NCBI GenBank assembly: GCA_963665295.1
Contig: OY762209.1
Span: 5,065,536-5,129,535 of the forward strand
Length of the DNA: 64,000 nucleotides
Direction of reading: 5' to 3'
Source of the DNA: Syntrophorhabdaceae bacterium
Lineage (GTDB): Bacteria > Desulfobacterota > Syntrophorhabdia > Syntrophorhabdales > Syntrophorhabdaceae
Positions within the stretch are counted from its first letter, which is position 1; every line of letters begins with the position of its first letter. Positions 10,194 through 45,978 of the stretch are shown piece after piece. The notes under the pieces are model-generated. The model made no database searches and was not told the origin of the DNA. It saw only the letters and a program-made list of their open reading frames with translations. The translations under genes were made by a program, and so were the position numbers.

Positions 10194-10200
10194 CCTTGCA

Positions 10201-14570: not shown

Positions 14571-14718
14571 TCGGCCCGCTTCCCAATCTTTAGACCCGGA
14601 GTTACCCTACAACAATAAAAGCATGTCTGTTTTTGCCCTCAATCCCCCACTTAAACGGGGGAATGAGACCGGCAGCGGCTTGTGCGGTCCGGACAGTGAA
14701 CTACGCTGCCGGGCCTGC

Positions 14719-23652: not shown

Positions 23653-24176
23653 TACAACTCCTCTATTACGATATTATCATTGGTGTAGATGCAGATCCCG
23701 GACGCAATGTGCATCGATTCCTCCACGATCTCCCTGGCCGACAGGTTCGCGTGCTTCACGAGCGCCCTTGCCGCCGACTGGGCATAGGCGCCGCCGGACC
23801 CGATGGCGGCCACGCCGTCATCCGGCTCGATCACGTCACCTGTCCCGGAGAGCATGAGAGTATGTTCCTCATCCGCCACTATAAGCAGGGCCTCGAGCCT
23901 CCGGAGCATCCTGTCCGTTCTCCAGTCCTTTGCAAGCTCCACGGCGGCCCTGGAGATATTCCCGTTATACTGCTCCAGTTTCTTTTCGAACCTCTCGAAA
24001 AGGGTAAAGGCATCCGCGGTGGCCCCTGCGAAACCGGCGAGACATTTTTCGTGATAGAGTTTCCGTACTTTCTTTGCCGTATGTTTCATGACAATATCAC
24101 CCATCGTGACCTGTCCGTCGCCTCCAATGGCAACTTTCCCCTCGTGTCTTACACATATGACTGTCGTCGCTTCCAT
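23652..24176 (-). CDS. hslV: ATP-dependent protease subunit HslV
   Basis: [22 protein letters not shown]-terminal Thr nucleophile context; 174 aa; overlaps the hslU start. Confidence 0.97.
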
Positions 24177-24178
24177 TT

Positions 24179-25066
24179 TTACCTTCTTGGGTGAGATTTG
24201 TCGTATATCTCCATCAGCTTTTCCATGGAGACATGGGTGTATTTCTGGGTGGTAGATAATTTTGAATGCCCGAGCAGTTCCTGAATACTCCGGAGGTCCG
24301 CGCCGCTGTCGAGCATATGCGTCGCAAAAGAATGACGCACGCCGTGGAGGGCGAGGTTCTTGAACAGGTGAGCATGCAGTTGATGCTTCTTCATAATTTT
24401 CAGAAGACCCCCGTAAGAGAGCCGGTATCCCCTCGCGTTCACGAACAGGGGACCTCTGACCGCACTTTTCCGGGCCTCCTTCAAGGCCGTCCGGTACTCC
24501 TCAACGGCAAGTTTCGCCTTGTCTCCGAAAGGGATTATCCTTTCCTTGCCGCCCTTGCCTTTTGCCTTCACCCACATTCCATCCATGTGTACGTCTTCCA
24601 CATCCATATTAAGCGTTTCCTGAGCTCGCATGCCCGTCGAATACATGAGCTCGAAAATGGCCCGGTTCCTTAAATTAAGCCATCCGTCCTTCGGCAGAAA
24701 ATCAAGGAAATGGAACATCTCGTCTATGGTGTAGAACTTGGGAAGATGCTTCTCTATCCTCGGGTTCTTGATCACCAGCGCCGTGTTTTCCTCAATATAT
24801 CCCTTCTTCTTCATAAATCTGAAGAAGACCTTTATGGACGAAACCTTCCTCGACAGGGAAGACTTCTTGAGTCCTTTGTAAATACTTACGATGTACGCCC
24901 TTATTGCGCGATGGTCCACTACATCGTAAGAACTCTTCTCTATAAAGGCGACAAAGTCGTCGATATCCCCCTTGTACGCCCTCTCCGTATTAAAGGCCAC
25001 GCCTTTTTCACTCTTCAGATACTTGTAAAACTCCCTGGACAACACCCTCATCGTATGTTTATCCAT
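24179..25066 (-). CDS. xerC: site-specific tyrosine recombinase XerC (XerC/XerD type)
   Basis: R...[23 protein letters not shown]......YTH catalytic motifs. It heads the hslVU operon, as in many proteobacteria. Confidence 0.85.
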
Positions 25067-25375: not shown

Positions 25376-27811
25376 ATGCCCCAAAAGAATTTTCCACCAG
25401 ATCCGCTAAACCAGGTCCGTAAGAAAGGCTCCATCATGCGAAAAGCGGTGACGCCGCTCATCCTGTTCATATTGTTCATTGCAGCCCTGCCCTTCCAGGG
25501 ATATCCGGCACAGCCCACCTATCCGATCTCGACGCCCGTTCAGACTACACGGGAGCGCACGGTGAGCCCTGATCCGATACCCGACGCACCCCAGATTGCC
25601 ATAGGGGAGGTGGACCAGTACCAGGCGTACGGATACAGTAGTTGGAGCGTCGGGGCCGGTGTCGATTACGGGATACTTTCGCCGGAAGGACCCTATGTGG
25701 ACTCCTACAACGCGGTGGAGACCCTTCTCACGTATTTCACCATGAGCGATATCCATATCACCGACAAAGAATCCACTGCCCAGGCCCTCTATATGTCATA
25801 CGGGCTCGGAACGTGGGGAAACTCCAACACCTCGGCATACTCTCCGATTATCCTGTCCACCACGCACGTGCACGACGCGGCGGTGCAGACGATCAACGCC
25901 CTCCACAAGGAGGCGCCCTTTGATTTCGGCCTCTCCCTGGGCGACGAGACGAACAGCACCCAGTATAATGAGGTCAGGTGGTTTATCGACGTCATGGACG
26001 GAAAAAAGATCACCCCAAGTTCGGGGGCGCACAAGGGAGCGGGCTCCATCGATTACCAGAAGCCCTACCAGTCGGCCGGGCTCGACAAGTCGATTCCCTG
26101 GTATGTGGTCATCGGCAACCATGACCAGTTCTGGTGCGGCTCCCTCTACCCCAACGACTATGTCCGGAGAGTCATGGTCGGCAATACGGTCCTCGATATG
26201 GGCAACGACGCAACAGGGGCGCTCTCGCTGGAAACTCGCGGTAACTACATGGGTGTGGTTGACGGGACGACACCGTACGGAACCGTCATAGACTATGGAC
26301 CCGCTTTCAGCGCCATGCCCACGCCCATCGTGGCCGCCGACTCGAACCGCCGGAGCCTCAGCACCTCGACATCCACAACCTTGAACTGGATGAAAGAGTT
26401 TTTCAAGACCACGTCGCAACCGAAGGGCCACGGGTTCACCCAGGTAAACCTCGATAATGACTTCGCGTCCTACACCTTTGAGCCCAAATCAAGCGTGCCG
26501 GTGAAGGTCATTGTCCTCGACGACACCTGCAAGGAGAATCCTCTCAGCAGCCTGAGCCATTCATACGCAAGAGGCTGCCTGGACCAGCAACGGTACGACT
26601 GGCTCGTCAGTGAGCTTAACCGGGGTCAGGCCGAGGGTAAGCTCATGATTGTGGCCGCCCACGTCCCGGTGGGACCTCAGCTCAATGTCCCCGACTACCC
26701 GGTGCCTCCGGGCTATCCCGCAAACTCGACGCCCGTGGCCGTCTTCCTCTCCACCTGCAACGCCCCCGGCTCAACTGTCGGCGTGCCTTGTAATAAGAGC
26801 ATCGGGATCGCCAACAATAGCCCCGTTCTCCCTTACTCGGTCGTCACCGACGAGTCGCTCCTTACAACGCTCCACAATTACTCGAACCTGATTCTGTGGC
26901 TCTCGGGGCACCGCCACCTCAATACCGTCAGCCCCAAGCCCGCGCCGAACGCGGAGACTCCCGAATTCGGTTTCTGGGAGGTGGAGACCGCATCCCTCCG
27001 GGACCACCCCCAGACCTTCCGCACCTTTAAGATCGTCCGGAACGACAACAATACGGTCTCCATATTCGTCACCAACGTGGACCCCTCCGTTGCCGGCACA
27101 GGCTCTCCCGCGGATAAATCCCGCGGCTATGCGATCGGCGCACAAAGGATCTCCATGGGCACCACCTACGGGGGCCTCACCGATACCTACCCTCACGTCT
27201 ATAACGCGGAGCTTATCAAACAGCTGGCCGCCCCCTATACCATCACGGTCAACGTGACCGGGCCGGGCTCCGTGCAGATGGGCCCCTATCAGGCCGCCAC
27301 ATGCTCCTCAAGCAGCCCTTGCTCAGCGTCCTATCTTCCGGGCACGGCGGTAAATCTCGCCGCCACTCCCGCCTCCGGGGCCGTCTTTGCCGGGTGGTCA
27401 ACCTGCGCGGGGACATCAACATGCAACGTTACCATGACCGACAATCTCACAGTAACCGCAGCCTTCACTCAGGCCCCCACCGCAATCACGACTCCGGCCT
27501 ACAAGAACCTCGGGGCGGTAAAGAGGGGCAAAAAAGCGACCGCTACTTTCACGGTGAGAAATGCCACGACCAAAGGCGTCGCCGATCTCACTCTCGGAAC
27601 CGCTTCAATTACCGGAGCGGACGCGGGGCAGTTTCAACTTGTAGCGGGCAAAGACCGCTGCTCCGGCCAGACCATCAAACCGGGCAAGAGCTGCACCTTC
27701 CAGGTTTCTTTCGCACCCACTGCGACAAACACAAGGATGGGAACGGTTACCGTACCCTCCAACGACTCCGGTTCACCGGCGACCGCACAGGTCGCGGGTA
27801 CAGGAAAATAG
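25376..27811 (+). CDS. secreted metallophosphoesterase paralogue A (TIGR03768-like, recalled), with one B-repeat module and one choice-of-anchor-D-like domain
   Basis: AAGGAGG lies 8 nt before ATG 25376, and a hydrophobic signal segment follows (LILFILFIAALPF). Calcineurin-like motifs are present: SDIHITD, GLSLGDE, GNHDQFW, AAHVP, GHRHLN. The C-terminus has ...CSSSSPCSASYLPGTAVNLAATPASGAVFAGWSTCAGTSTCNVTM and then TFTVRNAT..LTLGTASITGADAGQF...C.G..I.PGKSCTF.V.F.P. Confidence 0.85.
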   Translation: MPQKNFPPDPLNQVRKKGSIMRKAVTPLILFILFIAALPFQGYPAQPTYPISTPVQTTRERTVSPDPIPDAPQIAIGEVDQYQAYGYSSWSVGAGVDYGILSPEGPYVDSYNAVETLLTYFTMSDIHITDKESTAQALYMSYGLGTWGNSNTSAYSPIILSTTHVHDAAVQTINALHKEAPFDFGLSLGDETNSTQYNEVRWFIDVMDGKKITPSSGAHKGAGSIDYQKPYQSAGLDKSIPWYVVIGNHDQFWCGSLYPNDYVRRVMVGNTVLDMGNDATGALSLETRGNYMGVVDGTTPYGTVIDYGPAFSAMPTPIVAADSNRRSLSTSTSTTLNWMKEFFKTTSQPKGHGFTQVNLDNDFASYTFEPKSSVPVKVIVLDDTCKENPLSSLSHSYARGCLDQQRYDWLVSELNRGQAEGKLMIVAAHVPVGPQLNVPDYPVPPGYPANSTPVAVFLSTCNAPGSTVGVPCNKSIGIANNSPVLPYSVVTDESLLTTLHNYSNLILWLSGHRHLNTVSPKPAPNAETPEFGFWEVETASLRDHPQTFRTFKIVRNDNNTVSIFVTNVDPSVAGTGSPADKSRGYAIGAQRISMGTTYGGLTDTYPHVYNAELIKQLAAPYTITVNVTGPGSVQMGPYQAATCSSSSPCSASYLPGTAVNLAATPASGAVFAGWSTCAGTSTCNVTMTDNLTVTAAFTQAPTAITTPAYKNLGAVKRGKKATATFTVRNATTKGVADLTLGTASITGADAGQFQLVAGKDRCSGQTIKPGKSCTFQVSFAPTATNTRMGTVTVPSNDSGSPATAQVAGTGK

Positions 27812-28826: not shown

Positions 28827-29187
28827 AATTTCCTCCTGTTTATGTGAGAAATGGAAACGTCATTAATCCTTTTGATACCTTTGGTCCGACCCGCCGCGGG
28901 TCTTATCGCGCCCGACCGCCGGCTCCGCCCTGCAAGGCAGCGGTTCTTGCGTGCCTCCATTTCTGAACCGCGGGCATCTCCCTGAGAATCTGCACGCACG
29001 GGTTACCCCGCCGGCTATTCGGCCTTACCAGGAAGATAAGGATTGAGAAATCGGTTTGCAAGGACCGGAGGCAGACGACGTACAGGAATACACGGGCGAT
29101 CAAAGGGCGTTCCCGTGCTCCCCCCTTCGTTATTGTCTGCATACGAGATGGACCGTCACAAAGATGACAGCCCTTCCAACAAGTGAT

Positions 29188-29216
29188 TTCACTTTAAACC
29201 CGGTGCAGTGTATAAT
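29188..29216 (+). promoter_or_regulatory. sigma70-like promoter upstream of phosphoesterase B
   Basis: TTCACT - 17 nt - TATAAT (perfect -10, preceded by TG), ~77 nt upstream of the GTG start. Confidence 0.4.
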
Positions 29217-29233
29217 TTCATATTGTGAACCCG

Positions 29234-29249
29234 TGGCAGGTTCTTTGCA
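29234..29249 (+). promoter_or_regulatory. sigma54-type -24/-12 element upstream of phosphoesterase B
   Basis: TGGCAG-GTTCT-TTGCA fits TGGCAC-N5-TTGCW, 44 nt upstream of GTG 29293. No equivalent element was seen upstream of paralogue A. Confidence 0.4.
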
Positions 29250-29292
29250 GAAAATGGATTTCAGACATTACAGAGACAAGGGAGGAAAGTCT

Positions 29293-31713
29293 GTGATACA
29301 CAAAAATGTTACCGAAAACCGGAACAGCCTGCTTTCTCAAAAAAGCTGCATAATCCGAAACGTGACCGCACTGTCATTCCTGGTCTTCCTGTTTATTATG
29401 ACCCTGCCGTTCCACGGATACCCGGCAGGACCCACGTACCCCATCTCCACTGATGTCCAGACCACAAGGCAGAGGACAGTACGTCCCTCCCCTATACCCG
29501 AAGCGCCGGAGATCCCGATATGGCAGGTCGAGAATTATGCCGGATACGGGTACAGTAACTGGACATTCGGAGACCCTGTCGACTACGGCAGACTCTTGCC
29601 GGACGGCTCCGAACCTGATGTATCCAACCCGGTCGAAACGCTACTAAATTACTTTTCCATAAGCGATACTCACATCACCGACAAGGAATCGCCGGCCCAA
29701 TCGCTCTACTTCGGGGTGCAGGGAGGTTTTGGAAGCGCCAACCTGCCGATGTACTCACCCGTTATGCTGTCCACCACCCACGTTCTTGACGCGGTGGTCC
29801 AGACCATCAACGCCCTCAACACGGGGACGCACTTCGATTTCGGCATAGGGCTTGGCGATCCGGCGAACAGCAACCTGTACAACGGGCTCAGGTGGCATAT
29901 CGACATTCTCGACGGAAAGTGGATCACTCCGAGCTCGGGTGCGCACAAAGGAGCGAAGACTATCGACTACCAGAAACCCTACCAATCGGCGGGGCTCGAC
30001 AAGTCGATTTCATGGTACCAGGTCATCGGCAACCATGACCAGTATTGGTCCGGCGCCTTCTATCCCAACGATTACCTTCGAAGCACCCTCGTGGGAAACA
30101 CCGTTCTCAACATGGGCCTCGTGGGAGGGAACCCTTCCCTTGAGGCGCGCGGCATCTATATGGGCGTAATTGACGGGACTACCCCCTACGGGACCGTCGA
30201 GGACGACGGCGCAGCCTCGACCATGGAGCCGCCGAAGGTAGCCGCCGACAGTCGCCGCCGCGCACTCACGACCCCCACGTCGTCGTCCCTGAACTGGATG
30301 AAGGAGTTTTTCAACACCACTTCGAAACCGAAGGGCCACGGGTTCACCCAGGCCAATCTCGATCAGGACTTTGTCTCCTACACCTTCGAGCCCAAATCGA
30401 GCGTGCCGGTAAAGGTCATAGTCCTCGACGACACGTGCAAGGAAAACCCGTACTACGGTTCGTATTCCCACGGCTGCCTGGATCAGACACGGTATGACTG
30501 GCTTGTCAACGAACTTGACCAGGGTCAGGCCGAGGGCAAGCTCATGATCGTCGCCGCCCATGTCCCGGTAGGACCTCAGACAAATGTCCCCGACGCCCCG
30601 ATTCCGCCGAACCCGCAGGCCCCCGCCGTTCCCAACGATACGGTCATCCCCATGTTCTTCTCCACGTGCAACACTAACCCGACTTCCATAGGGGTCACTT
30701 GTGCCGCCGGTGTCGATATATCAAACAATGACCCGGTCTTCCCTTATACCGTCGTCACCGACTGGACGCTCCTTCAGACTCTTCATAACTACTCGAACCT
30801 CATCCTCTGGATGGCGGGGCACCGTCACATGAATACCGTCACCCCGCAACCCGCACCCGTAGACAAGGGCCCGGAGTTCGGCTTCTGGGAGGTGGAAACC
30901 CCATCGACCAGGGACTTCCCTCAGGGGTTTCGCACATTTCAGATCGTTCGTAACGACAACAATACGGTTTCCATATTCGTCACCAACGTGGACCCCGCGG
31001 TCCAGAACGGTTCTCCCGCGGACAAGTCCCGTGGGTATGCGATCGGCGCATACAGGATAGCAACCGGCACGCCCGGTCTCACTGATACCACCTCTCATGT
31101 ATATAACGCGGAGCTTATCAAGCCCCTTGCCGATCCTTATACCATTACGGTCAACGTGACCGGGCCCGGTACGGTAGACATGGGCCCCTACCAGGCTGCC
31201 ACATGCTCCGTGAGCAGCCCTTGTTCGGCGGATTATCTCCCGGGCACGCAGGTGGTCCTTGCCCCCATTCCCTCCACCGGGGCTGCCTTTACCGGGTGGT
31301 CGGTCTGTCCGGGGACATCAACGTGCAACATCATCATGACCGGTGATACCACGGTGACGGCAAGATTCATCCAGTCTCCGACCGCGACCGCCGCCCCGAC
31401 CTACAAAAACTTCCCTGTTACAAAGACCGGGAAGAAGGCCGTCTCCACCTTTACGGTCAGCAATACCCGGGCGAAAGGCATCGTTGATCTTGCAATCGGT
31501 ACCATTTCGATAGGCGGGCTAAACGCAGACCAGTTCCAGGTCGTGGAAGGCAAGGACCGTTGTTCCGGACAGATTGTCAAGCCGGGCAAGAACTGCACCT
31601 TTCAGGTTTCTTTCAATCCCACTTTGACGAATACCCGGGTGGCAACGGTTACGATACCCTCGAACGACTCCGCTTCACCTACGACCATACCGATCACCGG
31701 AGCGGGAAAATAG
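29293..31713 (+). CDS. secreted metallophosphoesterase paralogue B (same architecture as 25376-27811)
   Basis: AGGGAGGA SD ~7 nt before GTG 29293, and the N-terminus aligns with paralogue A (..LVFLFIMTLPFHGYPAGPTYPIS). It has the same SDTHITD, GLGDP, GNHDQYW, AAHVP and GHRHMN motifs, and the same B-repeat plus choice-of-anchor-D-like tail. By eye it is roughly two-thirds identical to A. Confidence 0.85.
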   Translation: MIHKNVTENRNSLLSQKSCIIRNVTALSFLVFLFIMTLPFHGYPAGPTYPISTDVQTTRQRTVRPSPIPEAPEIPIWQVENYAGYGYSNWTFGDPVDYGRLLPDGSEPDVSNPVETLLNYFSISDTHITDKESPAQSLYFGVQGGFGSANLPMYSPVMLSTTHVLDAVVQTINALNTGTHFDFGIGLGDPANSNLYNGLRWHIDILDGKWITPSSGAHKGAKTIDYQKPYQSAGLDKSISWYQVIGNHDQYWSGAFYPNDYLRSTLVGNTVLNMGLVGGNPSLEARGIYMGVIDGTTPYGTVEDDGAASTMEPPKVAADSRRRALTTPTSSSLNWMKEFFNTTSKPKGHGFTQANLDQDFVSYTFEPKSSVPVKVIVLDDTCKENPYYGSYSHGCLDQTRYDWLVNELDQGQAEGKLMIVAAHVPVGPQTNVPDAPIPPNPQAPAVPNDTVIPMFFSTCNTNPTSIGVTCAAGVDISNNDPVFPYTVVTDWTLLQTLHNYSNLILWMAGHRHMNTVTPQPAPVDKGPEFGFWEVETPSTRDFPQGFRTFQIVRNDNNTVSIFVTNVDPAVQNGSPADKSRGYAIGAYRIATGTPGLTDTTSHVYNAELIKPLADPYTITVNVTGPGTVDMGPYQAATCSVSSPCSADYLPGTQVVLAPIPSTGAAFTGWSVCPGTSTCNIIMTGDTTVTARFIQSPTATAAPTYKNFPVTKTGKKAVSTFTVSNTRAKGIVDLAIGTISIGGLNADQFQVVEGKDRCSGQIVKPGKNCTFQVSFNPTLTNTRVATVTIPSNDSASPTTIPITGAGK

Positions 31714-31865: not shown

Positions 31866-33374
31866 TCAGGGCGCCCGGCAGAGCCATTTTCTCCTCTCTT
31901 CTTCGTATTTCTCCTCTGCAATCGCCAATCGGGAAGGGTCCACAAGCCACCGCCAGGGAGCATCCATATGCCACTGCCGGTGGACGTATTGCCCTATGCA
32001 CTTGTCGTCAACAAACACTTTCATGGCTCCCCCCGGTACTTTGCCGAATAGAACGAATCTGAGCCTCAATCTGCCTTGCCCGAAAAAACGCAACATAGAC
32101 TTGATGTGAAGATATCCGTCGAGCCTTCTCAAAACAATATTCCTGGTATTTCTCAATATTCTTGAGATGCGGGCATAGGCATAGACGCACATGCCCGCTA
32201 AGCCCCCGGCAACCGGGCGATGCCTCCCTTGCCCGTGCACGGCCGTGACACGGCCTTCCACCGCACTCATGGGGACCGGGAAGGGGTCGTTTTCAGAGTT
32301 GTTGTCGCCGCGGGTCAGGAGACCGTCGGCGTGTACGGCCATGATCCGGTGGACCACCCTGATGCCCTTTACAGGATCGTGAAAACAGGCGACGTCGCCG
32401 CGGCGGGGATTCTTACCGTTGTAGGGTTCAACATCCAGAAAATCGGGCGCTTTCAACGTGGGATACATGCTGTTTCCAGAGAGCGTCACACCCCAAGGCA
32501 TGACCGGAACCCTCACGGAACTGCCGCCGGCAGATGGGTGCGCCACAGGGTATCCGCTCAGAAGGGGCTCTTTTTTTAACGACTCTTCGACCAGCTTCCA
32601 GAATTCTCCGGTCAGACCCAGATGAAGGATGTACGCATGCAGCGCCGCCGTCAGTGCACAGACGATCGAGAATTGCCTCAAGCGGTTTTCCCGCACCTCG
32701 GGAAGGGATAATTGCCGGTCGAAAACACCGTTTACCTGTCCTACCGAGTCGATAAGCATGGCTGCAGCCTGGGTCGGATTGATTTCTTCTAAAGTATCTT
32801 CCGGGGAGCGACGGAGAAAGTAGAGAGCAGCGAGCGGTACGGCAGCGCCGGTATCCCAGGCGCCGCCCGGGCCGTCGTCATAAAAGCGGCTCCAAGTCGG
32901 CCAGGGATGTGCCAGATACTTTCCCTCCGGATCCCGTACGATAAGGACCGTATCGTCACAGAGCGAATGCCAGGGAAAAGGGAGCCTTAAAGATGCCGTG
33001 GTTTTTCCGGTACCTCCCGGCGCCGCAAAAAGAACCCCTTTCCCTTCGTACTCTGCGAGCGCGCCATGCACAAGTACGCCGCCGTGGGTTTGGACTTCAT
33101 GGGCAATGACCAGGCTAACCTTCATAGCCCTGGATACAAGGTCGAACCTATTTTGGGGTCGGGAGAAGCGGTAGACAATCATATCATCGTCTACGGAAAA
33201 GGCTTCCTCTTGCTCTTCCCGGGCGGTCATAACGCAAAGAGAACGACTCGCGACGCCGGTCTTGAGCATCATGGCGTTCGCCAGGAGTTCCACGACGGGC
33301 TCCATTTCCTTTGTTCCCGCGTGGATTTGTCTTCGGGAGCCGTCAGTCAGAGACAGCAGGTATGATTTCCCCAT
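31866..33374 (-). CDS. RiPP-cassette protein: N-terminal P-loop domain (HprK-like / ScmC-like) fused to an S26 signal-peptidase-like domain and a ~120-aa C-terminal tail
   Basis: HGALAEYEGKGVLFAAPGGTGKTTASLRL is a Walker-A motif in an HPr-kinase-C-like context. GNSMYPTL, RGDVACF, VVHRI and TRGDNN..D are archaeal/ER-type S26 motifs. It is the last gene of the cassette operon. Confidence 0.75.
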   Translation of the reverse strand: MGKSYLLSLTDGSRRQIHAGTKEMEPVVELLANAMMLKTGVASRSLCVMTAREEQEEAFSVDDDMIVYRFSRPQNRFDLVSRAMKVSLVIAHEVQTHGGVLVHGALAEYEGKGVLFAAPGGTGKTTASLRLPFPWHSLCDDTVLIVRDPEGKYLAHPWPTWSRFYDDGPGGAWDTGAAVPLAALYFLRRSPEDTLEEINPTQAAAMLIDSVGQVNGVFDRQLSLPEVRENRLRQFSIVCALTAALHAYILHLGLTGEFWKLVEESLKKEPLLSGYPVAHPSAGGSSVRVPVMPWGVTLSGNSMYPTLKAPDFLDVEPYNGKNPRRGDVACFHDPVKGIRVVHRIMAVHADGLLTRGDNNSENDPFPVPMSAVEGRVTAVHGQGRHRPVAGGLAGMCVYAYARISRILRNTRNIVLRRLDGYLHIKSMLRFFGQGRLRLRFVLFGKVPGGAMKVFVDDKCIGQYVHRQWHMDAPWRWLVDPSRLAIAEEKYEEERRKWLCRAP

Positions 33375-33415
33375 GGTCTGTCAACCCTCTCATTCAACAT
33401 TGCCGGAGAGGGTCT

Positions 33416-34609
33416 TCAACGGACCGTATCCGGCATGAGGCGTGTTGTCCCTTGCGTGCTCCGGCCTTTCCTGCGGCGACTTGCCGGGAAAAGCCCTTGC
33501 CTGTCGGCCTCCCGGCATCGCGTGCCCGCCCATACCATACCTCCCCCTTTCCGGTAGTTTGCGGCAACGCAGCCGGTGCGGCACACGCGCGAGAGGATGC
33601 AATCCCCGCATATTCCCGGATACCCGAGATAATCTTCAAGCTCCCGCCGGAGACTTTGCAGTTTCGGGTGATGGAACCATATCTCCCGCACGCTGTCGCC
33701 CAGACGTCCATAGACAAGGGAGGGGACCGTCTGCCCAATGCCGCACATAGCGATCTCGCCCGTGCCCAGGATACCCAGAATACCGATGACGCCGCAATCC
33801 CCCGTGCGGCCCCCGGTTTCCATGAGCGTCCTGAAAGACCGGACGGCCGGCGGCAAATTGAGGATGAAACCCTTGATGGACGTCTTTTCCTTCAGTTCGC
33901 CATACACATATTTCTCAAGGGCCCGCAGTTCCGTGATGCCGAGGGTTTCCCTGCGCGCCGTCATCTGCTTGCCCCGCCCGCTGTCGGTGACAGGATTGAA
34001 TTTTACCGAGGCCACGCCATGCTTTGCCGCCAGGGATGCAACGCCGTCTATTTGAGAAACGTTTCCTCTATGGAGGCTCATGATGACCTGCGTGTTGTCG
34101 TATCCCGCTTCTTTGAGGCAGTCAAGTCCGCTCAAGGCGGCGGCAAAAGCGCCTCGGGCGCCTCTGAAGGCGTCGTGCGCCTCCTCGTCGGGATCGTCGA
34201 GGCTCACGGAAATGGAGCCTACTTTTGTGTTGTTCTTGAGCCAGTGCGCCAGCTCCCGCGTCATCAGGGTGCCGTTGGTCTCCATGTTCATGGTGAGGCC
34301 CATGTCGGAGAGCCCCGCCGCAATCTCCTTGAAGCGTGGATGAAGAAGGGGCTCGCCGCCCGTGAGTTTTGCCCTTGTCAATCCCAGGTTTTTGGCCTCT
34401 TTCACCGCGGCAAAAAGCGGTTCCGGGTCGATGCATTCCCGCGGGTCGGGCCTGCCGTCGATAAAACGCGGCGTGACCCAGCAGTGGCGGCACATGAGGT
34501 TGCAGCCGGAGGTGAGATAGAGGTAAAAGGAGCGGAGCGGCGGCACACCTTGCGGCAGCTCCGGGAAAGATGACGATTCAACGGGAATTTCCGGATCGCA
34601 AAGGGACAT
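33416..34609 (-). CDS. radical SAM/SPASM peptide maturase (PqqE-like), second of two
   Basis: ATG 34609 has an AAGAGGA SD (the track start at 34651 is TTG). LYLTSGCNLMCRHCW is the Cx3Cx2C cluster. The C-terminal Cys-rich SPASM region reads CGVIGILG..GEIAMCG...CGDCILSRVCRTGC. Confidence 0.85.
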   Translation of the reverse strand: MSLCDPEIPVESSSFPELPQGVPPLRSFYLYLTSGCNLMCRHCWVTPRFIDGRPDPRECIDPEPLFAAVKEAKNLGLTRAKLTGGEPLLHPRFKEIAAGLSDMGLTMNMETNGTLMTRELAHWLKNNTKVGSISVSLDDPDEEAHDAFRGARGAFAAALSGLDCLKEAGYDNTQVIMSLHRGNVSQIDGVASLAAKHGVASVKFNPVTDSGRGKQMTARRETLGITELRALEKYVYGELKEKTSIKGFILNLPPAVRSFRTLMETGGRTGDCGVIGILGILGTGEIAMCGIGQTVPSLVYGRLGDSVREIWFHHPKLQSLRRELEDYLGYPGICGDCILSRVCRTGCVAANYRKGGGMVWAGTRCREADRQGLFPASRRRKGRSTQGTTRLMPDTVR

Positions 34610-35723
34610 TCTTATCCTCTTTATATTTCTTGTAGCAGTTCCTTGGGTCAACGGCGTTTAACGTGCCGCATTGGGCGAAAACGACCGCCGGGCAGCCTCC
34701 TGTGCAAAATCCGGCATAGCTGCAGTCCCCGCATCCGGCGACCGTGGTGATCGGGGTTTCATAACGTGTGCGCAGGATATTGATTTCCCGTCCTGAAAGC
34801 CACGCCTCGCGAAGCGGCGTAGAGCCGATCTTCCCCATGACCATAGTAGGCAGCATAGTGCAAGGGACGATAGCGCCGTCGTGGCGAATCGCCATCTTAT
34901 TGAAAACTCCGCCACAGGCGGCAAGTTTTCCCCTGCCCGGCAGGCCGGTCTTGCCTTCGGCGAGGGCTCCTTCGATCTGAGCGACGTTTCTGGTGAAGGC
35001 CAGGGGTCCCGCTGCGGCTTTAATGCGTCCCGGGTAGCGCAGGGCAAGCTCTTCCATGGTTTTGACGGCCACGTCCCACTCTTCGTTGGAGAGGATCACG
35101 TCCTGACCGGAGCAGCGGGCGGAGCCGAAGGGGTTGGCGCCGTCGGTGCTGAAGGATTTCAGCCCTGCGTCTTCGAGGAGCAGGACGGCGACGTTTTCCA
35201 GATCACGCACATTGTAGCGATTGACCGTGACCCGGACGGTAACAGGAAAATCATGTTTCTTGAGCAGGCGCAACCCGCGCAAAGCCCGCTCGAAGCTCGC
35301 AGGCGAACGAGTTGAGTCGTGGATCTCAGGCGTGGCTCCGTCGATGGATACCTGAATGGAATCGAGGCGCAGCCGGCGCTTGCCTTCACGGAAGGCGTCG
35401 ATGACCTTGTCGTCGATGAGGGTGCCGTTGGAGAGAACGCTGTAGCGCATGCGGTTTTCGATCACGCTGTCAACCAGTGTGAAAAAATCAGGACGAGTAA
35501 AGACCTCGCCGCCGCTTAAGGTGAGGCGCTCGACGCCTATTGCACCCGCCTCAACAAAAAACTCACGCCACCGATCCGTAGGAAGATCGTCAAGGGCGGT
35601 CATTTCATCGGCGTAGAAGCAATAGCGGCACCGGAGGTTGCATTTACCCGTCAGACTGACCTGAAGGTTCGCGGGTGCGCCGCGTACACCGAAAGGATTG
35701 TTTTCACGTCTCCGAGGTTTCAT
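34578..35723 (-). CDS. radical SAM/SPASM peptide maturase (PqqE-like), first of two
   Basis: VSLTGKCNLRCRYCFY cluster motif. SPASM region CGGVFNKMAIRHDGAIVPC...CGDCSYAGFCTGGCPA. It overlaps the upstream PqqD-like gene by 20 nt. Confidence 0.87.
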   Translation of the reverse strand: MKPRRRENNPFGVRGAPANLQVSLTGKCNLRCRYCFYADEMTALDDLPTDRWREFFVEAGAIGVERLTLSGGEVFTRPDFFTLVDSVIENRMRYSVLSNGTLIDDKVIDAFREGKRRLRLDSIQVSIDGATPEIHDSTRSPASFERALRGLRLLKKHDFPVTVRVTVNRYNVRDLENVAVLLLEDAGLKSFSTDGANPFGSARCSGQDVILSNEEWDVAVKTMEELALRYPGRIKAAAGPLAFTRNVAQIEGALAEGKTGLPGRGKLAACGGVFNKMAIRHDGAIVPCTMLPTMVMGKIGSTPLREAWLSGREINILRTRYETPITTVAGCGDCSYAGFCTGGCPAVVFAQCGTLNAVDPRNCYKKYKEDKNVPLRSGNSR

Positions 35724-35979
35724 CGTGGACGATTACAAAATCGGGCAGCAGGGATTCAATAAACCTCTCGACATCCTCCTGCACATGCGTGGCGCCTTCG
35801 GTGTTTGCCGCCAGATATGCCGAGATTTCCGCGGAGGTCCGGGGCCGGGCGATTCTGTCCCATATGAGCCGTCCCGTTTCGTTGATCAGCACCACTTCGT
35901 CCGTATCGGGGTTGAAAAGCAGCGCCCCTTCGTCCTCGTCCCTTAGAGACACTACAGGATTTACTGCGTAACGCTTCAT
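35704..35979 (-). CDS. PqqD-family protein (RiPP recognition element), copy 2
   Basis: 91 aa. ...EGALLFNPDTDEVVLINETGRLIWDRI..PRTSAEISAYLA......V..DVERFIESLL is the typical PqqD pattern. ATGA overlap with copy 1. Confidence 0.75.
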   Translation of the reverse strand: MKRYAVNPVVSLRDEDEGALLFNPDTDEVVLINETGRLIWDRIARPRTSAEISAYLAANTEGATHVQEDVERFIESLLPDFVIVHDETSET

Positions 35980-36272
35980 AGATTGACCTCATACCCGATT
36001 AATCCCGTATCCAGGAGAATATCCAGAATGGCCCGCACATCGTCCTCCAGCGTCGGTGGCGCATCAATAAAACATTTTGCCGTTTCCTCGATGATGTCCC
36101 CCACGGTGCGGACGCCGTTCACGAGCCGCCAGATCAAAAGTCCGGTTGAGTTGAGCGCAAGACCGGTCGGAACGTCCAGATTGACGATAACCGCCCAGCC
36201 GCCTGCGTCTTCCTGCAGGGCATACGCCGGATTGCCGACAGGCAGCGAATCTAAACCGATTTCCCCGATCAT
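35976..36272 (-). CDS. PqqD-family protein (RiPP recognition element), copy 1
   Basis: 98 aa. ...AVIVNLDVPTGLALNSTGLLIWRLVNGVRTVGDIIEETAKCF.....LEDDVRAILDILLDTGLI is PqqD-like. It is the first gene of the operon, next to the AT-rich divergent promoter region. Confidence 0.7.
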   Translation of the reverse strand: MIGEIGLDSLPVGNPAYALQEDAGGWAVIVNLDVPTGLALNSTGLLIWRLVNGVRTVGDIIEETAKCFIDAPPTLEDDVRAILDILLDTGLIGYEVNL

Positions 36273-36428
36273 TCAGATTTCCATTCAATGTCGTTAAGTT
36301 CTATTTATAGCGTATAAATCACTAATTGGCAATCACAATAATATATTGGCGGAATAATTTGTTGAAGTTGCAATCGTAAATGTGGTATTCAAATGATAAA
36401 TCACAGATCAAAAGGAGGTTCGGTCAAC

Positions 36429-36629
36429 ATGAAGAAAACATCCTCCCCCACATCGACACCGGTCATGGACAGCCCGGAGACTAAAGCGGCCAAGCGGTAC
36501 GTCCCACCCACTGCGCTTCGGTTCGAATACTCTGTGGCGCACGCAGCCTGCAGCTATGGATCCGACGCCCCCACCGGGTGCAGTACCGGCGCCGTCGCCT
36601 TCGGCTGCACCAATGGGACCAACGAATAA
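36429..36629 (+). CDS. candidate RiPP precursor peptide (66 aa)
   Basis: AGGAGG lies ~10 nt before ATG 36429. Sequence: MKKTSSPTSTPVMDSPETKAAKRYVPPTALRFEYSVAHAACSYGSDAPTGCSTGAVAFGCTNGTNE. The C-terminal 27 aa contain three C-[ST]-x-G motifs 9-10 residues apart, preceded by an A-H-A (AxA) site. It is divergent from the maturase operon. Confidence 0.55.
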   Translation: MKKTSSPTSTPVMDSPETKAAKRYVPPTALRFEYSVAHAACSYGSDAPTGCSTGAVAFGCTNGTNE

Positions 36630-36759: not shown

Positions 36760-36895
36760 TACGGTCAACAATACCCGGACGAAAGGCATGGTTGATCTTG
36801 TAATCGGCACCATTTCCATAGGCGGGTTGAACGCGGACCGGTTCCAGGTCGTGGAAGTGTCCGCCCGTACCCTGTCTCTTCCCGGCCTTTCCTCA
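36760..36895 (+). pseudogene. remnant of a third phosphoesterase paralogue (choice-of-anchor-D-like segment plus downstream sequence)
   Basis: 36760-36858 is ~89% identical to 31452-31549 of paralogue B, and the frame is preserved (TVNNTRTKGMVDLVIGTISIGGLNADRFQVVE). 36857-36895 resembles 31792-31817, downstream of B. There is no start and no upstream body. Confidence 0.65.
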
Positions 36896-40330: not shown

Positions 40331-42379
40331 TCATTCGAGGGTGCCCTTCCCCGTCCCGGGTTTCAGGAAGACCGCAGTAACCGCACGGGCTTTATCCATG
40401 GTAACTATACAAGGCTCCGTGCCCGGACAATTCAGGGAAGCAGGTTTCCATCCCGTGAAAAGGGAATCATTGTTTGCGGTTGCCGTGAGGGTTACCGCGT
40501 CATGGAAGGGATAGTATGCGGAGCAGGTGGAGCCGCAGGTGATACCGGAAGGCACGCTTGTCACGACGCCATTGCCCTTTCCCATCTTGCGCTTTGAAAC
40601 GGTCAGCTTCTGAGTTCCCGCAAACGTGGCGACCACTGTTTTTGCCTTATCCATGGTGACCGAACAGGCTCCGGTCCCCGAACAGGCTCCGGTCCATCCC
40701 GTGAAGGTGGAGTTCGCTTCCGGGGAAGCAGAAAGGACCACCGCGTCATGGAAGGGATAGTATGCGGAGCAGGTGGAGCCGCAGGTGATACCGGAAGGCA
40801 CGCTTGTCACGACGCCATTACCACCCTTTCCCGTCTTGCGCTTTGAAACGGTCAGCTTCTGAGGTCCCGCAAACGTGGCGACCACTGTCTTTGCCTTATC
40901 CATGGTGACCGAACAGGCTCCGGTCCCCGAACAGGCTCCGGTCCATCCCGTGAAGGTGGAGTTCGCTTCCGGGGAAGCAGAAAGGACCACAAGAGTGTTC
41001 GGATAGTAGCGAGTTCTGCAATGGGTGCCGCAATCGATCATGCCGTCCGTGCTCGTAATGGCTCCATTCCCTGAATTCATCCTTCTCCTGATTGCTGCAA
41101 GCTCAACCTTCTTCGTCTCTGCCGGCTCAAACACAGCGGTCACATTCATATCGCTGCTCATGACTACGGTGCATGTGGGTGATGCCCCGATACACGCTCC
41201 TGTCCAGTAAGCAAAGACAGACCCGGAAGCGGCTGCTGCAGTGAGCGTTACAGTGGTGTCGGGGATAAAACGGGCGGCACAGGTTACGCCACAATCAATT
41301 TCGGCAGAAGAAGAACCAATGCTGCCGGAGCCGTTGCCGCATCTCGTGACAGCGAGGATGGGGATGGCCGGCGACAGGAAGGCATAGGGCCCGCCGGATG
41401 TAGTATAGAAATACCCCACCACATCTCCTGCGTTATTTATGGCGGTGGCATAGGCCGTTGTTCCTCCCGGCGGAGTTCCGAGGTCCATCATGGCCCCATT
41501 GCTGTAAAGAAAAGCGCGGATATCGCTATCGTCATTATAAGAAATTCCCACCACCTGCCCTGCGTCGTTGATGCCATAGGCATAACTATTGGTTCCTCCC
41601 GGCAGGGTTCCGAGGTCCGTCATGGTCCCATCACTGTAAAGAAAAGCACGGACCAGATGATCCGCAGTATTGGCATAACCCACCACCTGTCCTGCGTTAT
41701 TGATACCAAAGGCGTGACTATAGGTTCCTCCCGGCAGGGTTCCGAGGTCCGTCATGGTCCCATCACTGTAAAGAAAAGCATGGTTGCTGCCGGAGGCAGC
41801 CCCTACTACCTGTCCGGCGTCGTTGATGCCATAGGCATCAACAGAGTACCCGAGTTTGATCAGCCGACGACTATTAACATTAAAAAGAAAAGACCAGGAG
41901 GTAACAATGCTCATTGGTCCTATTTCGTTGTAATACCCCACCGCGTCTCCGGCATTATTGACGCCACGGGCAATGGTGTATGATAGCCTTTTTGGCGGAT
42001 ATCCGAAATGGATCACCGTTCCATTGGTGTAATAAAAGTTGCCCAAAGAGGACAACCCTACCACATCCCCCGCGTCGTTAATACCGGTTCCGTGGCTATA
42101 CTCCTCTCCTATCAGGACTCCGATATCCGTCATGGTCCCATCGCTAAAAAGAAAGGCGTGATACTGACCGGATGAAGTAACGGCTGTTCCCACTACCTGT
42201 CCGGCGTTGTTGATGTCCTTGGCCTGGCTCCAGGCTCCTCCCAAGGTTCCGAGGTTGATCATGTTTTCGGCTGCAAATGATCCGGGGGGATAGGACAAGA
42301 AAACCAGAAGGGTGTACAAAAATAGAGTTCCCGGAATACCCACCACAGATTTCGTTCGTCGCTGAGAACTTTTCTCCAT
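40331..42379 (-). CDS. secreted HAF-family repeat protein with four C-terminal B-repeat modules
   Basis: ATG 42379 has a GAAGGGGGG SD, followed by a signal segment (LFLYTLLVFLSYPPGSFA). There are ~8 repeats of GINDAGQVVG....HAFLYSDGTMTDLGTLPGG..S.A (HAF extracellular repeat, TIGR02913 as recalled), then Cys-containing B-repeats. Confidence 0.85.
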   Translation of the reverse strand: MEKSSQRRTKSVVGIPGTLFLYTLLVFLSYPPGSFAAENMINLGTLGGAWSQAKDINNAGQVVGTAVTSSGQYHAFLFSDGTMTDIGVLIGEEYSHGTGINDAGDVVGLSSLGNFYYTNGTVIHFGYPPKRLSYTIARGVNNAGDAVGYYNEIGPMSIVTSWSFLFNVNSRRLIKLGYSVDAYGINDAGQVVGAASGSNHAFLYSDGTMTDLGTLPGGTYSHAFGINNAGQVVGYANTADHLVRAFLYSDGTMTDLGTLPGGTNSYAYGINDAGQVVGISYNDDSDIRAFLYSNGAMMDLGTPPGGTTAYATAINNAGDVVGYFYTTSGGPYAFLSPAIPILAVTRCGNGSGSIGSSSAEIDCGVTCAARFIPDTTVTLTAAAASGSVFAYWTGACIGASPTCTVVMSSDMNVTAVFEPAETKKVELAAIRRRMNSGNGAITSTDGMIDCGTHCRTRYYPNTLVVLSASPEANSTFTGWTGACSGTGACSVTMDKAKTVVATFAGPQKLTVSKRKTGKGGNGVVTSVPSGITCGSTCSAYYPFHDAVVLSASPEANSTFTGWTGACSGTGACSVTMDKAKTVVATFAGTQKLTVSKRKMGKGNGVVTSVPSGITCGSTCSAYYPFHDAVTLTATANNDSLFTGWKPASLNCPGTEPCIVTMDKARAVTAVFLKPGTGKGTLE
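40494..40988 (-). repeat. near-identical tandem duplication (246 + 249 bp) inside the HAF-repeat gene
   Basis: 40494-40739 and 40740-40988 differ only by a 3-nt indel and a handful of substitutions (~98% identity). Each unit encodes one B-repeat module (SASPEANSTFTGWTGACSGTGACSVTMDKAKTVVATFAG.QKLTVSKRK.GKG). Confidence 0.9.
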
Positions 42380-42542
42380 GACGATCCCCCCTTCCGCCCA
42401 CACACCGGTGAACCGGTTATGGGCCCCTTCATTCAACCTGTGCTACTCTATGCAGGTATTGTCAATACCATAAATCCGCCTCTGCCGACCAAAAATCAAA
42501 ACTGCATAATTCAAAGATGACTGAAGAATTAAAAGGAGCAGT

Positions 42543-45835: not shown

Positions 45836-45978
45836 CCATGAGATGTCGCATGAACCGGTTGAACCTGGATCGCACAAATGATGGACAGGCATCCTTGCAA
45901 CACCCCGTCCGGCACAAATGCCGTGTATACTTGAATATTACTCCACTGAGAAAATAAGTCAAGAAATATCGTGGAAAA

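Follow-up and report, generated by a model that had tools for sequence, protein, structure and literature searches.

The locus described here, together with the pathway that we propose for it below, is probably a complete minimal RiPP cassette of the SynChlorMet type from a divergent sub-clade, whose traits are two PqqD genes and a fusion of ScmC with an S26 peptidase. Five minus-strand genes that overlap or are tightly packed face a small precursor gene, within the 64-kb stretch of DNA that was analysed (the window). The features of the locus are the following:

35976-36272, minus strand: ScmD-like PqqD-family protein 1, 98 aa (ORF list, PF05402, TIGR04248)
35704-35979, minus strand: ScmD-like PqqD-family protein 2, 91 aa (PF05402, TIGR04248, NF033530)
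34578-35723, minus strand: ScmE-like radical SAM/SPASM maturase, 381 aa (TIGR04250, PF04055, PF13186)
33416-34609, minus strand: ScmF-like radical SAM/SPASM maturase, 397 aa (TIGR04251, PF04055)
31866-33374, minus strand: ScmC/S26 fusion protein, 502 aa (ORF list)
32544-33374, minus strand: ScmC domain, about residues 1-277 of the 502-aa protein (TIGR04249, AF2, Foldseek)
32205-32498, minus strand: S26 (Sec11/archaeal-type) serine peptidase domain, about residues 293-390 (profile match, PF10502, TIGR02228)
31866-32204, minus strand: C-terminal extension of the peptidase, residues 391-502 (alignment, AF2 secondary structure)
36429-36629, plus strand: ScmA-like precursor gene, 66 aa (family profile match)
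36413-36418, plus strand: Shine-Dalgarno sequence AGGAGG, 10 nt before the precursor ATG (read from the sequence)
36273-36428, no strand: divergent intergenic region, 156 bp, 32% GC (base composition)

The ORF list returned the six ORFs at the coordinates given by the initial annotation, all of them intact, and the spacer that it had called AT-rich indeed has 32% GC, against 56% across the window. The strong Shine-Dalgarno sequence that it had placed before the 66-aa ORF is also there. The spacer presumably holds the promoters of the precursor and of the maturase operon; a promoter scan of it returned one sigma-70-like site (minus strand, 36365-36338), at chance level only. The two PqqD-like genes share a 4-nt ATGA overlap, and AGAGGA lies 6 nt upstream of the ATG of the ScmF-like gene, for which the public gene call gives the identical 397 aa. 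The arrangement of the cassette is non-random, since the same gene order is found in dozens of unrelated genomes and the small ORF is the sole match to the precursor profile among the 761 ORFs of the window.

In HMM searches, the Scm models were the best NCBIfam matches for all five proteins of the operon. The initial annotation had described the gene set as SynChlorMet-like; this likeness was upheld, but not strict membership, since only ScmC reached the curated cut-off, which makes the locus a divergent relative and not an equivalog. The domain assignments made earlier (PqqD-like, radical SAM, P-loop/S26) were supported by PF05402, PF04055, an S26/Sec11-type match and the P-loop GGTGKTT. The first PqqD-like protein scored 50.8 bits with PF05402 and had TIGR04248 as its top match (47 bits, cut-off 100), the second 42.9 and 34 bits with the same two models, and the latter protein also matched the lasso PqqD model NF033530 (E=3.9e-6). 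With 30% pairwise identity, the second protein is an old paralogue of the first. Protein 1, orthologues of which occupy the same position in loci L002-L022, is a predicted leader-binding RRE.

Both radical SAM proteins match PF04055 and keep the CX3CX2C and the full SPASM cysteine motifs, which read CNLRCRYC (residues 28-35) and CGDCSYAGFCTGGC in the ScmE-like protein, and CNLMCRHC and CGDCILSRVCRTGC in the ScmF-like protein. The former, which also matches PF13186 and has more than 1600 relatives, scored 365.4 bits with TIGR04250 (cut-off 400; next family 122 bits), and public pipelines give the name ScmE to proteins 73% identical to it. The latter scored 298.9 bits with TIGR04251 (cut-off 400), in an alignment that spans positions 2-352 of the 353 in the profile. 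Among solved structures, those nearest to the ScmE-like protein are SkfB, PqqE and CteB, and those nearest to the ScmF-like protein are SkfB and PqqE. After the Scm models, the next-best radical SAM models were mixed: WgkB (a Lys-Trp cross-link enzyme), AhbD, NirJ, MftC and PqqE.

The 502-aa protein is an HPr-kinase/PEPCK-fold P-loop domain joined to a Sec11-type Ser/His peptidase, with the catalytic residues of the latter intact. Its N-terminal half scored 148.7 bits with TIGR04249 (cut-off 125) and keeps every HPrK/P catalytic motif (His, P-loop and DD pair), the invariant residues being H103, G123-K124-T126 and D140-D141 by alignment column. From sequence alone the HPrK match is weak (E=0.88), while the AF2 model (pLDDT 88.7) and Foldseek support the fold, the Foldseek matches being PEPCK (E=5.6e-7) and HprK/P 1jb1 (E=2.4e-4, 22% identity). 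The S26/Sec11-type match covers residues 296-379, with S302 (in GNSMYP), H342-R343 and G356-D357-x-N359...D363 invariant; it scored 23.4 with PF10502 (cut-off 22.9) and 48.8 with TIGR02228 (cut-off 51.85), and a profile of the fused proteins matched human SEC11C (7p2q) with E=4.1e-14. Residues 391-502 comprise long Arg-rich helices and a small beta domain with W468, and the same extension is carried by stand-alone peptidases of distant cassettes. The S26 domain is predicted to be the leader peptidase.

Judged by its sequence, the 66-aa ORF does indeed encode a precursor, as the initial annotation had proposed, and it belongs to a Cys-repeat family that travels with Scm-like cassettes. Profiles were built from small ORFs of other Scm-like cassettes, the window being excluded; the seed peptides of the first profile were chosen by eye, a choice that we counted against our explanation, and later searches ran blind across all ORFs. 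Among the 761 ORFs of the window, the 66-aa ORF was the sole match to the first profile (E=2.9e-5) and the sole significant match to a later one (E=9.2e-7; runner-up 0.78). The public record calls the identical 66-aa product. Its predicted leader spans residues 1-40 (36429-36548) and contains Y24-V-P-P-T-A-L-R-F, with A-H-A directly before the core; the predicted core, residues 41-66 (36549-36626), consists of three C-x-x-G repeats (CSYGSDAPTG, CSTGAVAFG and CTNGTNE). In the family as a whole, the leader motif is Y-x-P-P-x-A-x-R-L and a small-x-small site directly precedes the first Cys (A-H-A/A-C in the window peptide, the slash marking the cut); [GAS]-x-[GAS] stands there in 19 of the 23 precursors of the fused clade. 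The cores are hypervariable, with 3-7 C-x-x-G repeats spaced 10-11 residues apart (175 of 253 Cys intervals) and Gly at +3 in 73% of the repeats. Cys is their one invariant, periodically repeated residue, and no invariant Ser or Thr was found in them. Across the 47 peptides of alignment A3, Y24, P27, G44, C51, G54, C60 and G63 are invariant. The window peptide departs from the consensus: its leader motif ends in R-F, not R-L, and position -2 relative to the first Cys is Ala, where Gly is usual.

Could the ORF have arisen by chance in the spacer, the true substrate being encoded elsewhere? BLAST and phmmer returned no relatives of it, no sequence-level relative was found among 1.84 billion representatives, and the ScmA model TIGR04252 does not match it. 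The same model matches none of the distinct peptides that were scanned. The gap between the profile E-values of the ORF and its runner-up, the presence of every family-invariant residue, the AGGAGG before the ORF and the 3-Cys precursors that the closest relatives likewise carry make a chance origin extremely improbable.

The order D1-D2-E-F-C::S26 was found in 12 genomes (among Smithella, Methanothrix, Methanoregula, WOR-3, Bacteriovoracaceae, Cytophagia and Desulfobulbus), and the precursor family in 56 of 80 Scm-like loci. Small Cys-containing ORFs accompany homologous cassettes: 52 of the 54 first-round matches lie within a cassette or at most 1.5 kb away. Some loci hold several precursor paralogues (five in L005). 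One related cassette (L081) adjoins lasso-like genes. The claim that the substrate peptide of the family had escaped identification and that this locus supplies it is not supported, as NCBIfam already contains TIGR04252 'SCM_precur_ScmA' and recognisable precursors are present in related cassettes, mostly located between ScmF and ScmC. The intact S26 domain is the obvious candidate for the dedicated leader peptidase also claimed, but it is not novel to this locus: of the 80 related loci, 42 have an S26-like ORF, which in 12 of them forms a fusion with ScmC. Some of the fused proteins are already named ScmC in public annotation, and Pfam has a ScmC family, PF27840. S26 peptidases, fused or separate, are a regular part of Scm-like cassettes, and the novelty claim was overstated, the databases already defining the SynChlorMet family including its precursor type. 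The statement that no product is known apparently still holds, in that the searchable literature yielded no paper dealing with the system or with what it makes, and none of the ScmC, ScmE and ScmF matches listed there concerned the system. We take the family to be known as database models alone.

The absence of an exporter, immunity gene and regulator, also noted earlier, holds for at least 10 kb in both directions from the cassette. The locus lacks the NTP_transf_5 gene found beside many related cassettes and the ABC exporter that adjoins 37 of the 80, and it is bracketed by a pseudogene fragment: 98 nt derived from the neighbouring gene, at 90% identity, lie on the far side of the cassette. 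A silent or decaying remnant of horizontal acquisition, without a product in this organism, is in our view an unlikely account of the locus. The fragment, the missing exporter and nucleotidyltransferase and the chance-level promoter scan would fit such a remnant, but the six ORFs are intact with all catalytic and cluster-binding motifs conserved, the gene overlaps resemble those of translationally coupled genes, the precursor has a strong Shine-Dalgarno sequence, and the GC content of the cassette (57%) matches that of the window.

In the pathway that we propose, ScmD1 and ScmD2 would bind the leader via Y-x-P-P-x-A-x-R-[LF], like the PqqD RREs of the PQQ, mycofactocin and lasso pathways, and would then offer the core to ScmE and ScmF. 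These would act on the three C-x-x-G repeats through radical chemistry, most likely giving Cys-derived thioether cross-links (sactionine or ranthionine-type), one per Cys and possibly closing small rings inside each repeat. The ScmC domain would use ATP and most likely phosphorylate the peptide on Ser or Thr, by analogy with the lasso HPr-kinase homologues; a precedent exists in HPr-kinase homologues that phosphorylate RiPP precursors, and in partner nucleotidyltransferases too (PMC8498205). As no core Ser or Thr is invariant, none stands out as the target of the kinase. The fused cytoplasmic S26 domain would cut the leader at A-H-A/A-C, and the product may stay in the cell, or a transporter whose gene lies outside the locus may carry it out. 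We infer the thioethers, the phosphorylation and the cleavage site alike.

A tentative alternative, possible but clearly less probable, keeps the cassette and precursor as described and gives the radical SAM enzymes another chemistry: they could join residues through C-C or C-O bonds, act as epimerases, or turn Cys into formylglycine or a different Cys-derived group, and ScmC might not be a kinase but serve the peptidase as an ATP-dependent scaffold or chaperone. The SPASM family performs many reactions, the next-best models are mixed, two different enzymes suggest two different reactions, and the cores have no invariant Ser or Thr. Against this, Cys is the invariant, periodic core residue, ScmC retains all HPrK/P catalytic motifs, and the thioether synthases SkfB and CteB are, with PqqE, the nearest solved structures, an observation that favours the thioether chemistry of our pathway. 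Also counted against our explanation were the sub-cut-off equivalog scores of ScmD, ScmE and ScmF, the peptide's off-consensus positions and lack of a TIGR04252 match or sequence-level relative, the weak sequence-only HPrK match, the lack of an invariant core Ser/Thr, and the missing ABC exporter and NTP_transf_5 gene with the bracketing pseudogene fragment.

How does the locus compare with known systems? The curated SynChlorMet set (ScmA TIGR04252, ScmC TIGR04249 and Pfam PF27840, ScmD TIGR04248, ScmE TIGR04250, ScmF TIGR04251) shares with it a Cys-repeat precursor, PqqD, two PqqE-like radical SAM/SPASM enzymes and an HPrK-like ScmC. Here, however, there are two PqqD genes and not one, ScmC is fused to an S26 peptidase, the precursor gene lies upstream in divergent orientation instead of inside the operon, and there is no exporter. 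The locus is a good minimal target for experiment.

The sactipeptide and ranthipeptide systems (SkfB/SkfA, AlbA/SboA, CteB/CteA (SCIFF), PapB/PapA (freyrasin)) likewise combine a radical SAM/SPASM or twitch enzyme and an RRE with a leader-bearing, Cys-containing precursor, and repeated short Cys motifs occur among them, as with C-x3-D in PapA. Their RRE is an N-terminal domain, whereas here the RRE is a discrete PqqD protein encoded twice; this locus has two distinct radical SAM enzymes, with low similarity to PapB and AlbA (66-75 bits), a C-x-x-G repeat spaced 10-11 residues and an S26-type leader peptidase. The lasso tailoring set comprises an HPr-kinase homologue (paeninodin, pseudomycoidin), an NTP_transf_5 nucleotidyltransferase, a PqqD-type B1 RRE and an ABC exporter. 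The locus resembles it in its HPrK-fold P-loop protein and PqqD RRE, ScmD2 matching the lasso PqqD model, and many Scm-like cassettes have NTP_transf_5 genes and ABC exporters beside them; the Tyr, Pro and Leu of the leader recall the lasso motif Y-x-x-P-x-L. By contrast, the locus has neither a lasso cyclase (Asn-synthase-like) nor a transglutaminase-like B2 protease, maturation is by radical SAM enzymes, and the window has no nucleotidyltransferase or exporter.

PQQ (PqqA/D/E) and mycofactocin (MftA/B/C) share with the locus a discrete PqqD-family chaperone, a SPASM radical SAM enzyme and a small peptide, and both model sets match proteins of the window, with scores far under the cut-offs (PqqE 86/381, MftC 96/265). 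The product might be an intracellular, peptide-derived redox cofactor and not a secreted cross-linked peptide, a reading consistent with the PqqD and PqqE-like components, with the MftC and PqqE matches of both radical SAM proteins and with the lack of a nearby exporter. We regard it as quite improbable, since hypervariable, multi-repeat, Cys-based cores, precursor paralogues and adjacent exporters are typical of secreted RiPPs and do not fit a cofactor. Finally, the peptidase of our proposed cassette shares with Sec11/archaeal/SipW-type signal peptidase I the Ser/His pair, the GDNN box and the SEC11C match (E=4e-14), and it matches TIGR02754 of SodX, a Ni-SOD maturation protease and soluble S26 relative (E=1.6e-7); likewise, a small-x-small site stands ahead of the core. 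It differs from signal peptidase I in having no membrane anchor on sequence inspection, a fused cytoplasmic kinase-fold domain and a C-terminal extension that is conserved and about 110 aa long, and its presumed substrate is a RiPP leader rather than a signal peptide.

The SynChlorMet (SCM) cassette is a RiPP family defined in databases and experimentally uncharacterised, and the locus described here is one of its variants, both divergent and minimal. Its six ORFs were found exactly where the initial annotation had placed them:

35976-36272, minus strand: first PqqD-like gene (ScmD1)
35704-35979, minus strand: second PqqD-like gene (ScmD2), with a 4-nt ATGA overlap with ScmD1
34578-35723, minus strand: ScmE-like radical SAM gene (CNLRCRYC)
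33416-34609, minus strand: ScmF-like radical SAM gene (CNLMCRHC)
31866-33374, minus strand: ScmC::S26 fusion gene, 502 aa
36429-36629, divergent, across a spacer from the operon: 66-aa precursor ORF

Genes of the C, D, E and F types are thus adjacent in one cassette, together with a small Cys-rich peptide gene. Consecutive minus-strand genes overlap by 4, 20 and 32 nt, and the remaining gap measures 41 nt. The spacer between the operon and the precursor is 156 bp long, with a GC content of 32% against a window mean of 56%, and an AGGAGG sequence lies 10 nt upstream of the precursor ATG. A promoter and terminator scan returned nothing above shuffled expectation, and scans of the window against Rfam and for tRNAs gave no match. 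Public gene calls of the source genome match the 66-, 98-, 397- and 502-aa products. The public call for ScmE (P0002, 34578-35723, minus strand) is 341 aa long, with an internal Met start past the CX3CX2C motif; since ScmE homologues of 75% identity measure 375-376 aa, the 381-aa start at 35723 is likely the true one.

The proposal of a SynChlorMet-like gene set is borne out by the NCBIfam search, in which each Scm enzyme model came first among the matches of its counterpart. ScmE aligned with TIGR04250 (ScmE) over profile positions 2-353 of 358 at 365.4 bits, below the cut-off of 400, and this was its best match by 243 bits, the runner-up family scoring 122. ScmF likewise fell below the cut-off of TIGR04251 (298.9 bits, cut-off 400; profile positions 2-352 of 353), yet this was its top match. 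The ScmD model TIGR04248 was the top match of both PqqD proteins with 47 and 34 bits, again below its cut-off (100). Because ScmC is the only one to pass the curated cut-off of its Scm model, the cassette is, by the curators' thresholds, a divergent relative and not an equivalog. In JGI and NCBI, proteins of 73% identity are named ScmE, and some fused proteins are named ScmC. The Pfam model PF05402 recognised ScmD1 and ScmD2 above its cut-off of 23.4 (50.8 and 42.9 bits), and ScmD2 also matches the lasso PqqD model. The two are 30% identical to each other, and related loci contain a separate orthologue of each, so the PqqD duplication is old. ScmE carries the CX3CX2C motif CNLRCRYC and a seven-Cys SPASM region (CX2CX5CX3C) CGDCSYAGFCTGGC, with Pfam matches to PF04055 (95.7 bits) and PF13186 (SPASM, 28.2 bits). 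ScmF combines CNLMCRHC with a SPASM region CGDCILSRVCRTGC and a PF04055 match of 82.5 bits; its SPASM region is supported by the motif and the TIGR04251 alignment, the Pfam SPASM match being on ScmE only. The closest solved structures to both radical SAM proteins are SkfB, PqqE and CteB. A heme-pathway identity (AhbD/NirJ) was rejected for these proteins, with scores of about 118 bits against cut-offs of at least 500.

The fifth enzyme combines two domains. Its ScmC part scored 148.7 bits against TIGR04249, above the cut-off of 125, in a partial match that joins profile positions 117-292 of 292 (the C-terminal 60%) to residues 91-266. The public record assigns PF27840, the ScmC family included in Pfam, to this exact 502-aa protein. 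We made two alignments of the protein, one with 9 fused orthologues and the other with 45 database relatives. Across 46 sequences, H103, the P-loop G123-K124-x-T126 and D140-D141 of the N-terminal half are invariant, the combination that marks the catalytic domain of HPr kinase/phosphorylase. A Foldseek search with the AlphaFold2 model (pLDDT 88.7) recovered PEPCK structures (E=5.6e-7) and HprK/P 1jb1 (E=2.4e-4, 22% identity over 102 columns), and the sequence-only HPrK match was weak (1ko7, E=0.88). Pfam places Peptidase_S26 on residues 296-350, with PF10502 at 23.4 against a cut-off of 22.9, and TIGR02228 scored 48.8 bits, slightly under its cut-off of 51.85. A profile of this second domain retrieved human SEC11C (E=4.1e-14), and S302 (GNSMYP), H342-R343 and a GDxN...D box with D357/D363 are invariant among 10 fused proteins; the domain is therefore, judging by these residues and this match, a Ser/His peptidase of the Sec11/archaeal/SipW type. 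Inspection of the 502-aa sequence found no hydrophobic segment, and so no membrane anchor that would place the active site outside the cytoplasm; the S26 domain follows a cytoplasmic-type kinase fold. Residues 391-432 form Arg-rich helices, and the S26 domain is followed by a conserved C-terminal extension of about 110 residues, which peptidases encoded separately in distant cassettes share.

A pattern scan of 185,579 species genomes yielded 80 loci with ScmE relatives of 44-71% identity, from syntrophic deltaproteobacteria, methanogens, Chloroflexi, Aminicenantes, Verrucomicrobia and other hosts; at E < 1e-30, ScmE has more than 1600 relatives. The closest loci, about 20 in number, share the order D1-D2-E-F-(C::S26). 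Their hosts are Smithella, an uncultured deltaproteobacterium, Methanothrix, Methanoregula, WOR-3, Bacteriovoracaceae, Cytophagia and Desulfobulbus. In more distant loci (Chloroflexi, Aminicenantes, Verrucomicrobia, Fermentibacteria and others) there is a single PqqD gene, and ScmC and the peptidase sit side by side as separate genes. Of the 80 loci, 42 contain an S26 ORF, in 12 cases fused to ScmC, and many of the other loci are truncated contigs. Since kinase-fold ScmC and the S26 peptidase are fused in one clade and adjacent in others, genome organisation provides good evidence that they act together. An ABC exporter accompanies 37 of the 80 relatives, and NTP_transf_5 genes were assigned to 30 loci by clustering and confirmed by Pfam on three examples. 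Within the window neither an exporter nor an NTP_transf_5 gene was found, UvrA being the only ABC-like match.

Several relatives are more elaborate. In the closest metagenomic one (L081, positions 1-15103; ScmE 75% identical) the cassette lies within a larger cluster containing two Asn-synthase-like genes, a Transglut_core3 protein, a PqqD-TylF methyltransferase fusion, a GT2 glycosyltransferase, a second ScmC-like gene, an ABC exporter and two NTP_transf_5 genes, so that lasso-like parts adjoin radical SAM parts. A Methanothrix locus (L005, 10279-13222) has, between ScmF and ScmC::S26, a further ScmF copy and a tandem array of five precursor paralogues. A second, divergent ScmC-like P-loop family of about 300 aa (...HSSGV...GGGKTT...SDD...) is represented in 17-27 distant cassettes (for example L042, 10653-11576; L043, 10828-11748 and 12655-13689), some loci having two copies, and had no match in our local copy of Pfam.

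The related loci also identified the precursor. In many of them, gaps of 0.3-1.6 kb between ScmF and ScmC hold small ORFs of a common pattern, and 15 of these, the window being excluded, were used to build a first profile. It recovered the window ORF at 36393-36629 with E=2.9e-5; the runner-up among 761 window ORFs scored 0.45. Applied to all 11,690 ORFs from the 80 loci, the profile matched 54 ORFs in 46 loci, and 52 of the 54 were inside a cassette or at most 1.5 kb from one, in line with the expectation that homologous cassettes have a small Cys-containing ORF beside them. A second profile of 46 peptides, again built without the window, returned the same ORF with E=9.2e-7 (next 0.78) and precursors in 56 of the 80 loci. 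The 66-aa ORF, which the initial annotation had put forward as the cassette's precursor, is thus the sole significant family match in the window. Detection depended on the family profile: NCBIfam and Pfam scans assigned no family to the peptide, BLASTP against all ORFs of the 80 related loci gave no match, and a word-indexed search of 5.8 billion proteins returned the peptide itself alone. An exhaustive phmmer search of 1.84 billion representatives added to the self-match three long repeat proteins and nothing else; these match through many short stretches and were rejected as spurious. Also rejected was a 62-aa divergent ORF upstream of PqqD in two loci (L082 and L083), which resembles the window in layout but has no Cys repeats and no profile match.

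The family has a leader of the form Y-x-[PAK]-P-x-[AV]-x-x-L, in which Tyr and Pro are invariant, followed by about 10 variable residues and then usually a Gly at -2 from the first Cys. The core consists of 3-7 C-x-x-G repeats. Successive Cys are spaced by 10-11 in 175 of 253 intervals, and 73% of repeats have Gly at +3 of Cys; no invariant Ser or Thr was found in the cores across the aligned family peptides. The window peptide fits this description residue by residue (...KRYVPPTALRFEYSVAHAA-CSYGSDAPTG-CSTGAVAFG-CTNGTNE), and exactly three Cys also occur in the closest relatives L002, L081 and L084. A [GAS]-x-[GAS] motif directly precedes the first Cys in 19 of 23 fused-clade precursors, with 12 of 23 in the -4/-2 register against about 11% expected from composition; the window peptide has a classical A-H-A|A-C at this point. 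The gene itself changes position: L002 and L081 carry it between F and C, L084 upstream and co-directional (6248-6436), L003 downstream and convergent, and the window upstream and divergent.

What does this add to what curators already hold? The initial annotation had stated that no substrate peptide was identified for the family and that the locus would supply the missing precursor. This part does not stand, since NCBIfam contains TIGR04252 ('SCM_precur_ScmA, SynChlorMet cassette protein ScmA'; 49 positions, cut-off 35 bits), and a precursor has therefore already been assigned. The model is narrow: it did not match the window peptide at E up to 10, and among the 47 aligned precursor-family peptides, window peptide included, it gave weak matches for 10 (E up to 10; best 0.0035), with none passing the cut-off. 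Further scans with this model were re-scans of members of the same alignment, not of new peptides, and agreed. Since none of the 47 passes it, pipelines will leave most such precursors unnamed or uncalled; the L084 precursor, for instance, is not called as a gene. The peptidase cannot be regarded as a missing piece either, given its recurrence in related loci. The initial interpretation was therefore right in the identity of the cassette and its precursor, and wrong in presenting precursor and peptidase as newly supplied parts. A literature search over 8 million full texts found no paper on the SynChlorMet system, its product, reaction or function; in the searched literature the family exists as database models without described chemistry.

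The surroundings bear on how the cassette came to its place. Two copies of a 98-nt direct repeat, 90% identical, flank it on either side (31452-31549 and 36760-36857). Of these, the left one falls within the 3' end of an intact gene for an 885-aa secreted protein (29056-31713), and the right copy belongs to an orphan fragment (about 36761-36868) of 36 aa, 78% identical to residues 800-835 of the same protein. The flanking repeat and gene fragment suggest recombination among paralogous genes of one family as the route by which the 5.3-kb cassette arrived or was rearranged. Another sign of the cassette moving as a unit is its type VI setting in L084 (1-15131), where the five genes stand amid type VI secretion genes (VgrG, DUF2169/pentapeptide, PAAR-like). 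The GC content of the cassette (57%) does not differ from that of the window (56%). An inverted repeat (32535-32564 and 36516-36545; 30 nt, 80% complementary) between the ScmC::S26 and precursor coding regions is probably due to chance. Four large paralogous InlB B-repeat (Flg_new_2) proteins are encoded at 25376-27811, 29056-31713, 40331-42436 and 42569-45892, three of them with HYDIN/Cep192-like Ig domains and the 701-aa protein (40331-42436) without. The 811-aa protein (25376-27811) has a weak metallophosphoesterase match, and a reading of the 885-aa protein suggests a similar domain. Elsewhere in the window are UvrA (9922-13005) and, at 22321-25066, a XerC-like recombinase beside an HslU-type AAA ATPase (443 aa, Pfam), next to which a 174-aa ORF is a candidate HslV. 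UvrA and XerC-HslVU mark the window as ordinary chromosome, and its tyrosine recombinase is a housekeeping enzyme rather than an island integrase.

A proposed pathway starts from what was observed: which parts are present, that their motifs are intact and that the genes co-occur. ScmD1 and ScmD2 would bind the leader through the Y-x-P-P...L motif, like the discrete RREs of the PQQ, mycofactocin and lasso pathways. ScmE and ScmF would then modify the Cys repeats, and we favour a single Cys-derived thioether in each, since no other core residue is periodically invariant and the two enzymes have thioether synthases as their nearest structural relatives. The Gly at +3 might be the acceptor or a conformational requirement. 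The ScmC domain would use ATP, most likely for peptide phosphorylation by analogy with the lasso pathway, where HPr-kinase homologues phosphorylate the precursors and the phosphate is then glycosylated by a partner nucleotidyltransferase (PMC8498205). Finally, the S26 domain may remove the leader at the predicted small-x-small site (A-H-A|A-C in the window). It is tempting to speculate that all this amounts to a chemically undescribed RiPP class, with a small ring in every C-x-x-G repeat, formed by ScmE and ScmF as a Cys-to-Gly (i, i+3) or neighbouring thioether, phosphorylation by ScmC and cytoplasmic leader removal by a fused Sec11-type S26 peptidase; taken jointly, we consider these features unlikely to hold. 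Were they true, the fused peptidase would rank as the first RiPP leader peptidase from the S26 family, and the three-Cys, six-gene locus the smallest system in which to demonstrate such chemistry.

Our findings indicate that SynChlorMet-type cassettes are widespread, and that the S26 peptidase, the HPrK-fold ScmC, the ABC exporter and the NTP_transf_5 gene recur in the system. Through its leader motif, its C-x-x-G repeat and a probable site of cleavage, the precursor family is now defined far more broadly than by TIGR04252. The locus is a natural minimal example, whose six genes and 26-residue, three-Cys core suit heterologous reconstitution. It has the prerequisites of a sactipeptide or ranthipeptide system (Cys repeats, SPASM radical SAM enzymes and an RRE). 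It overturns nothing and is no new kind of system; its value is that of a well-defined entry to an uncharacterised RiPP family.
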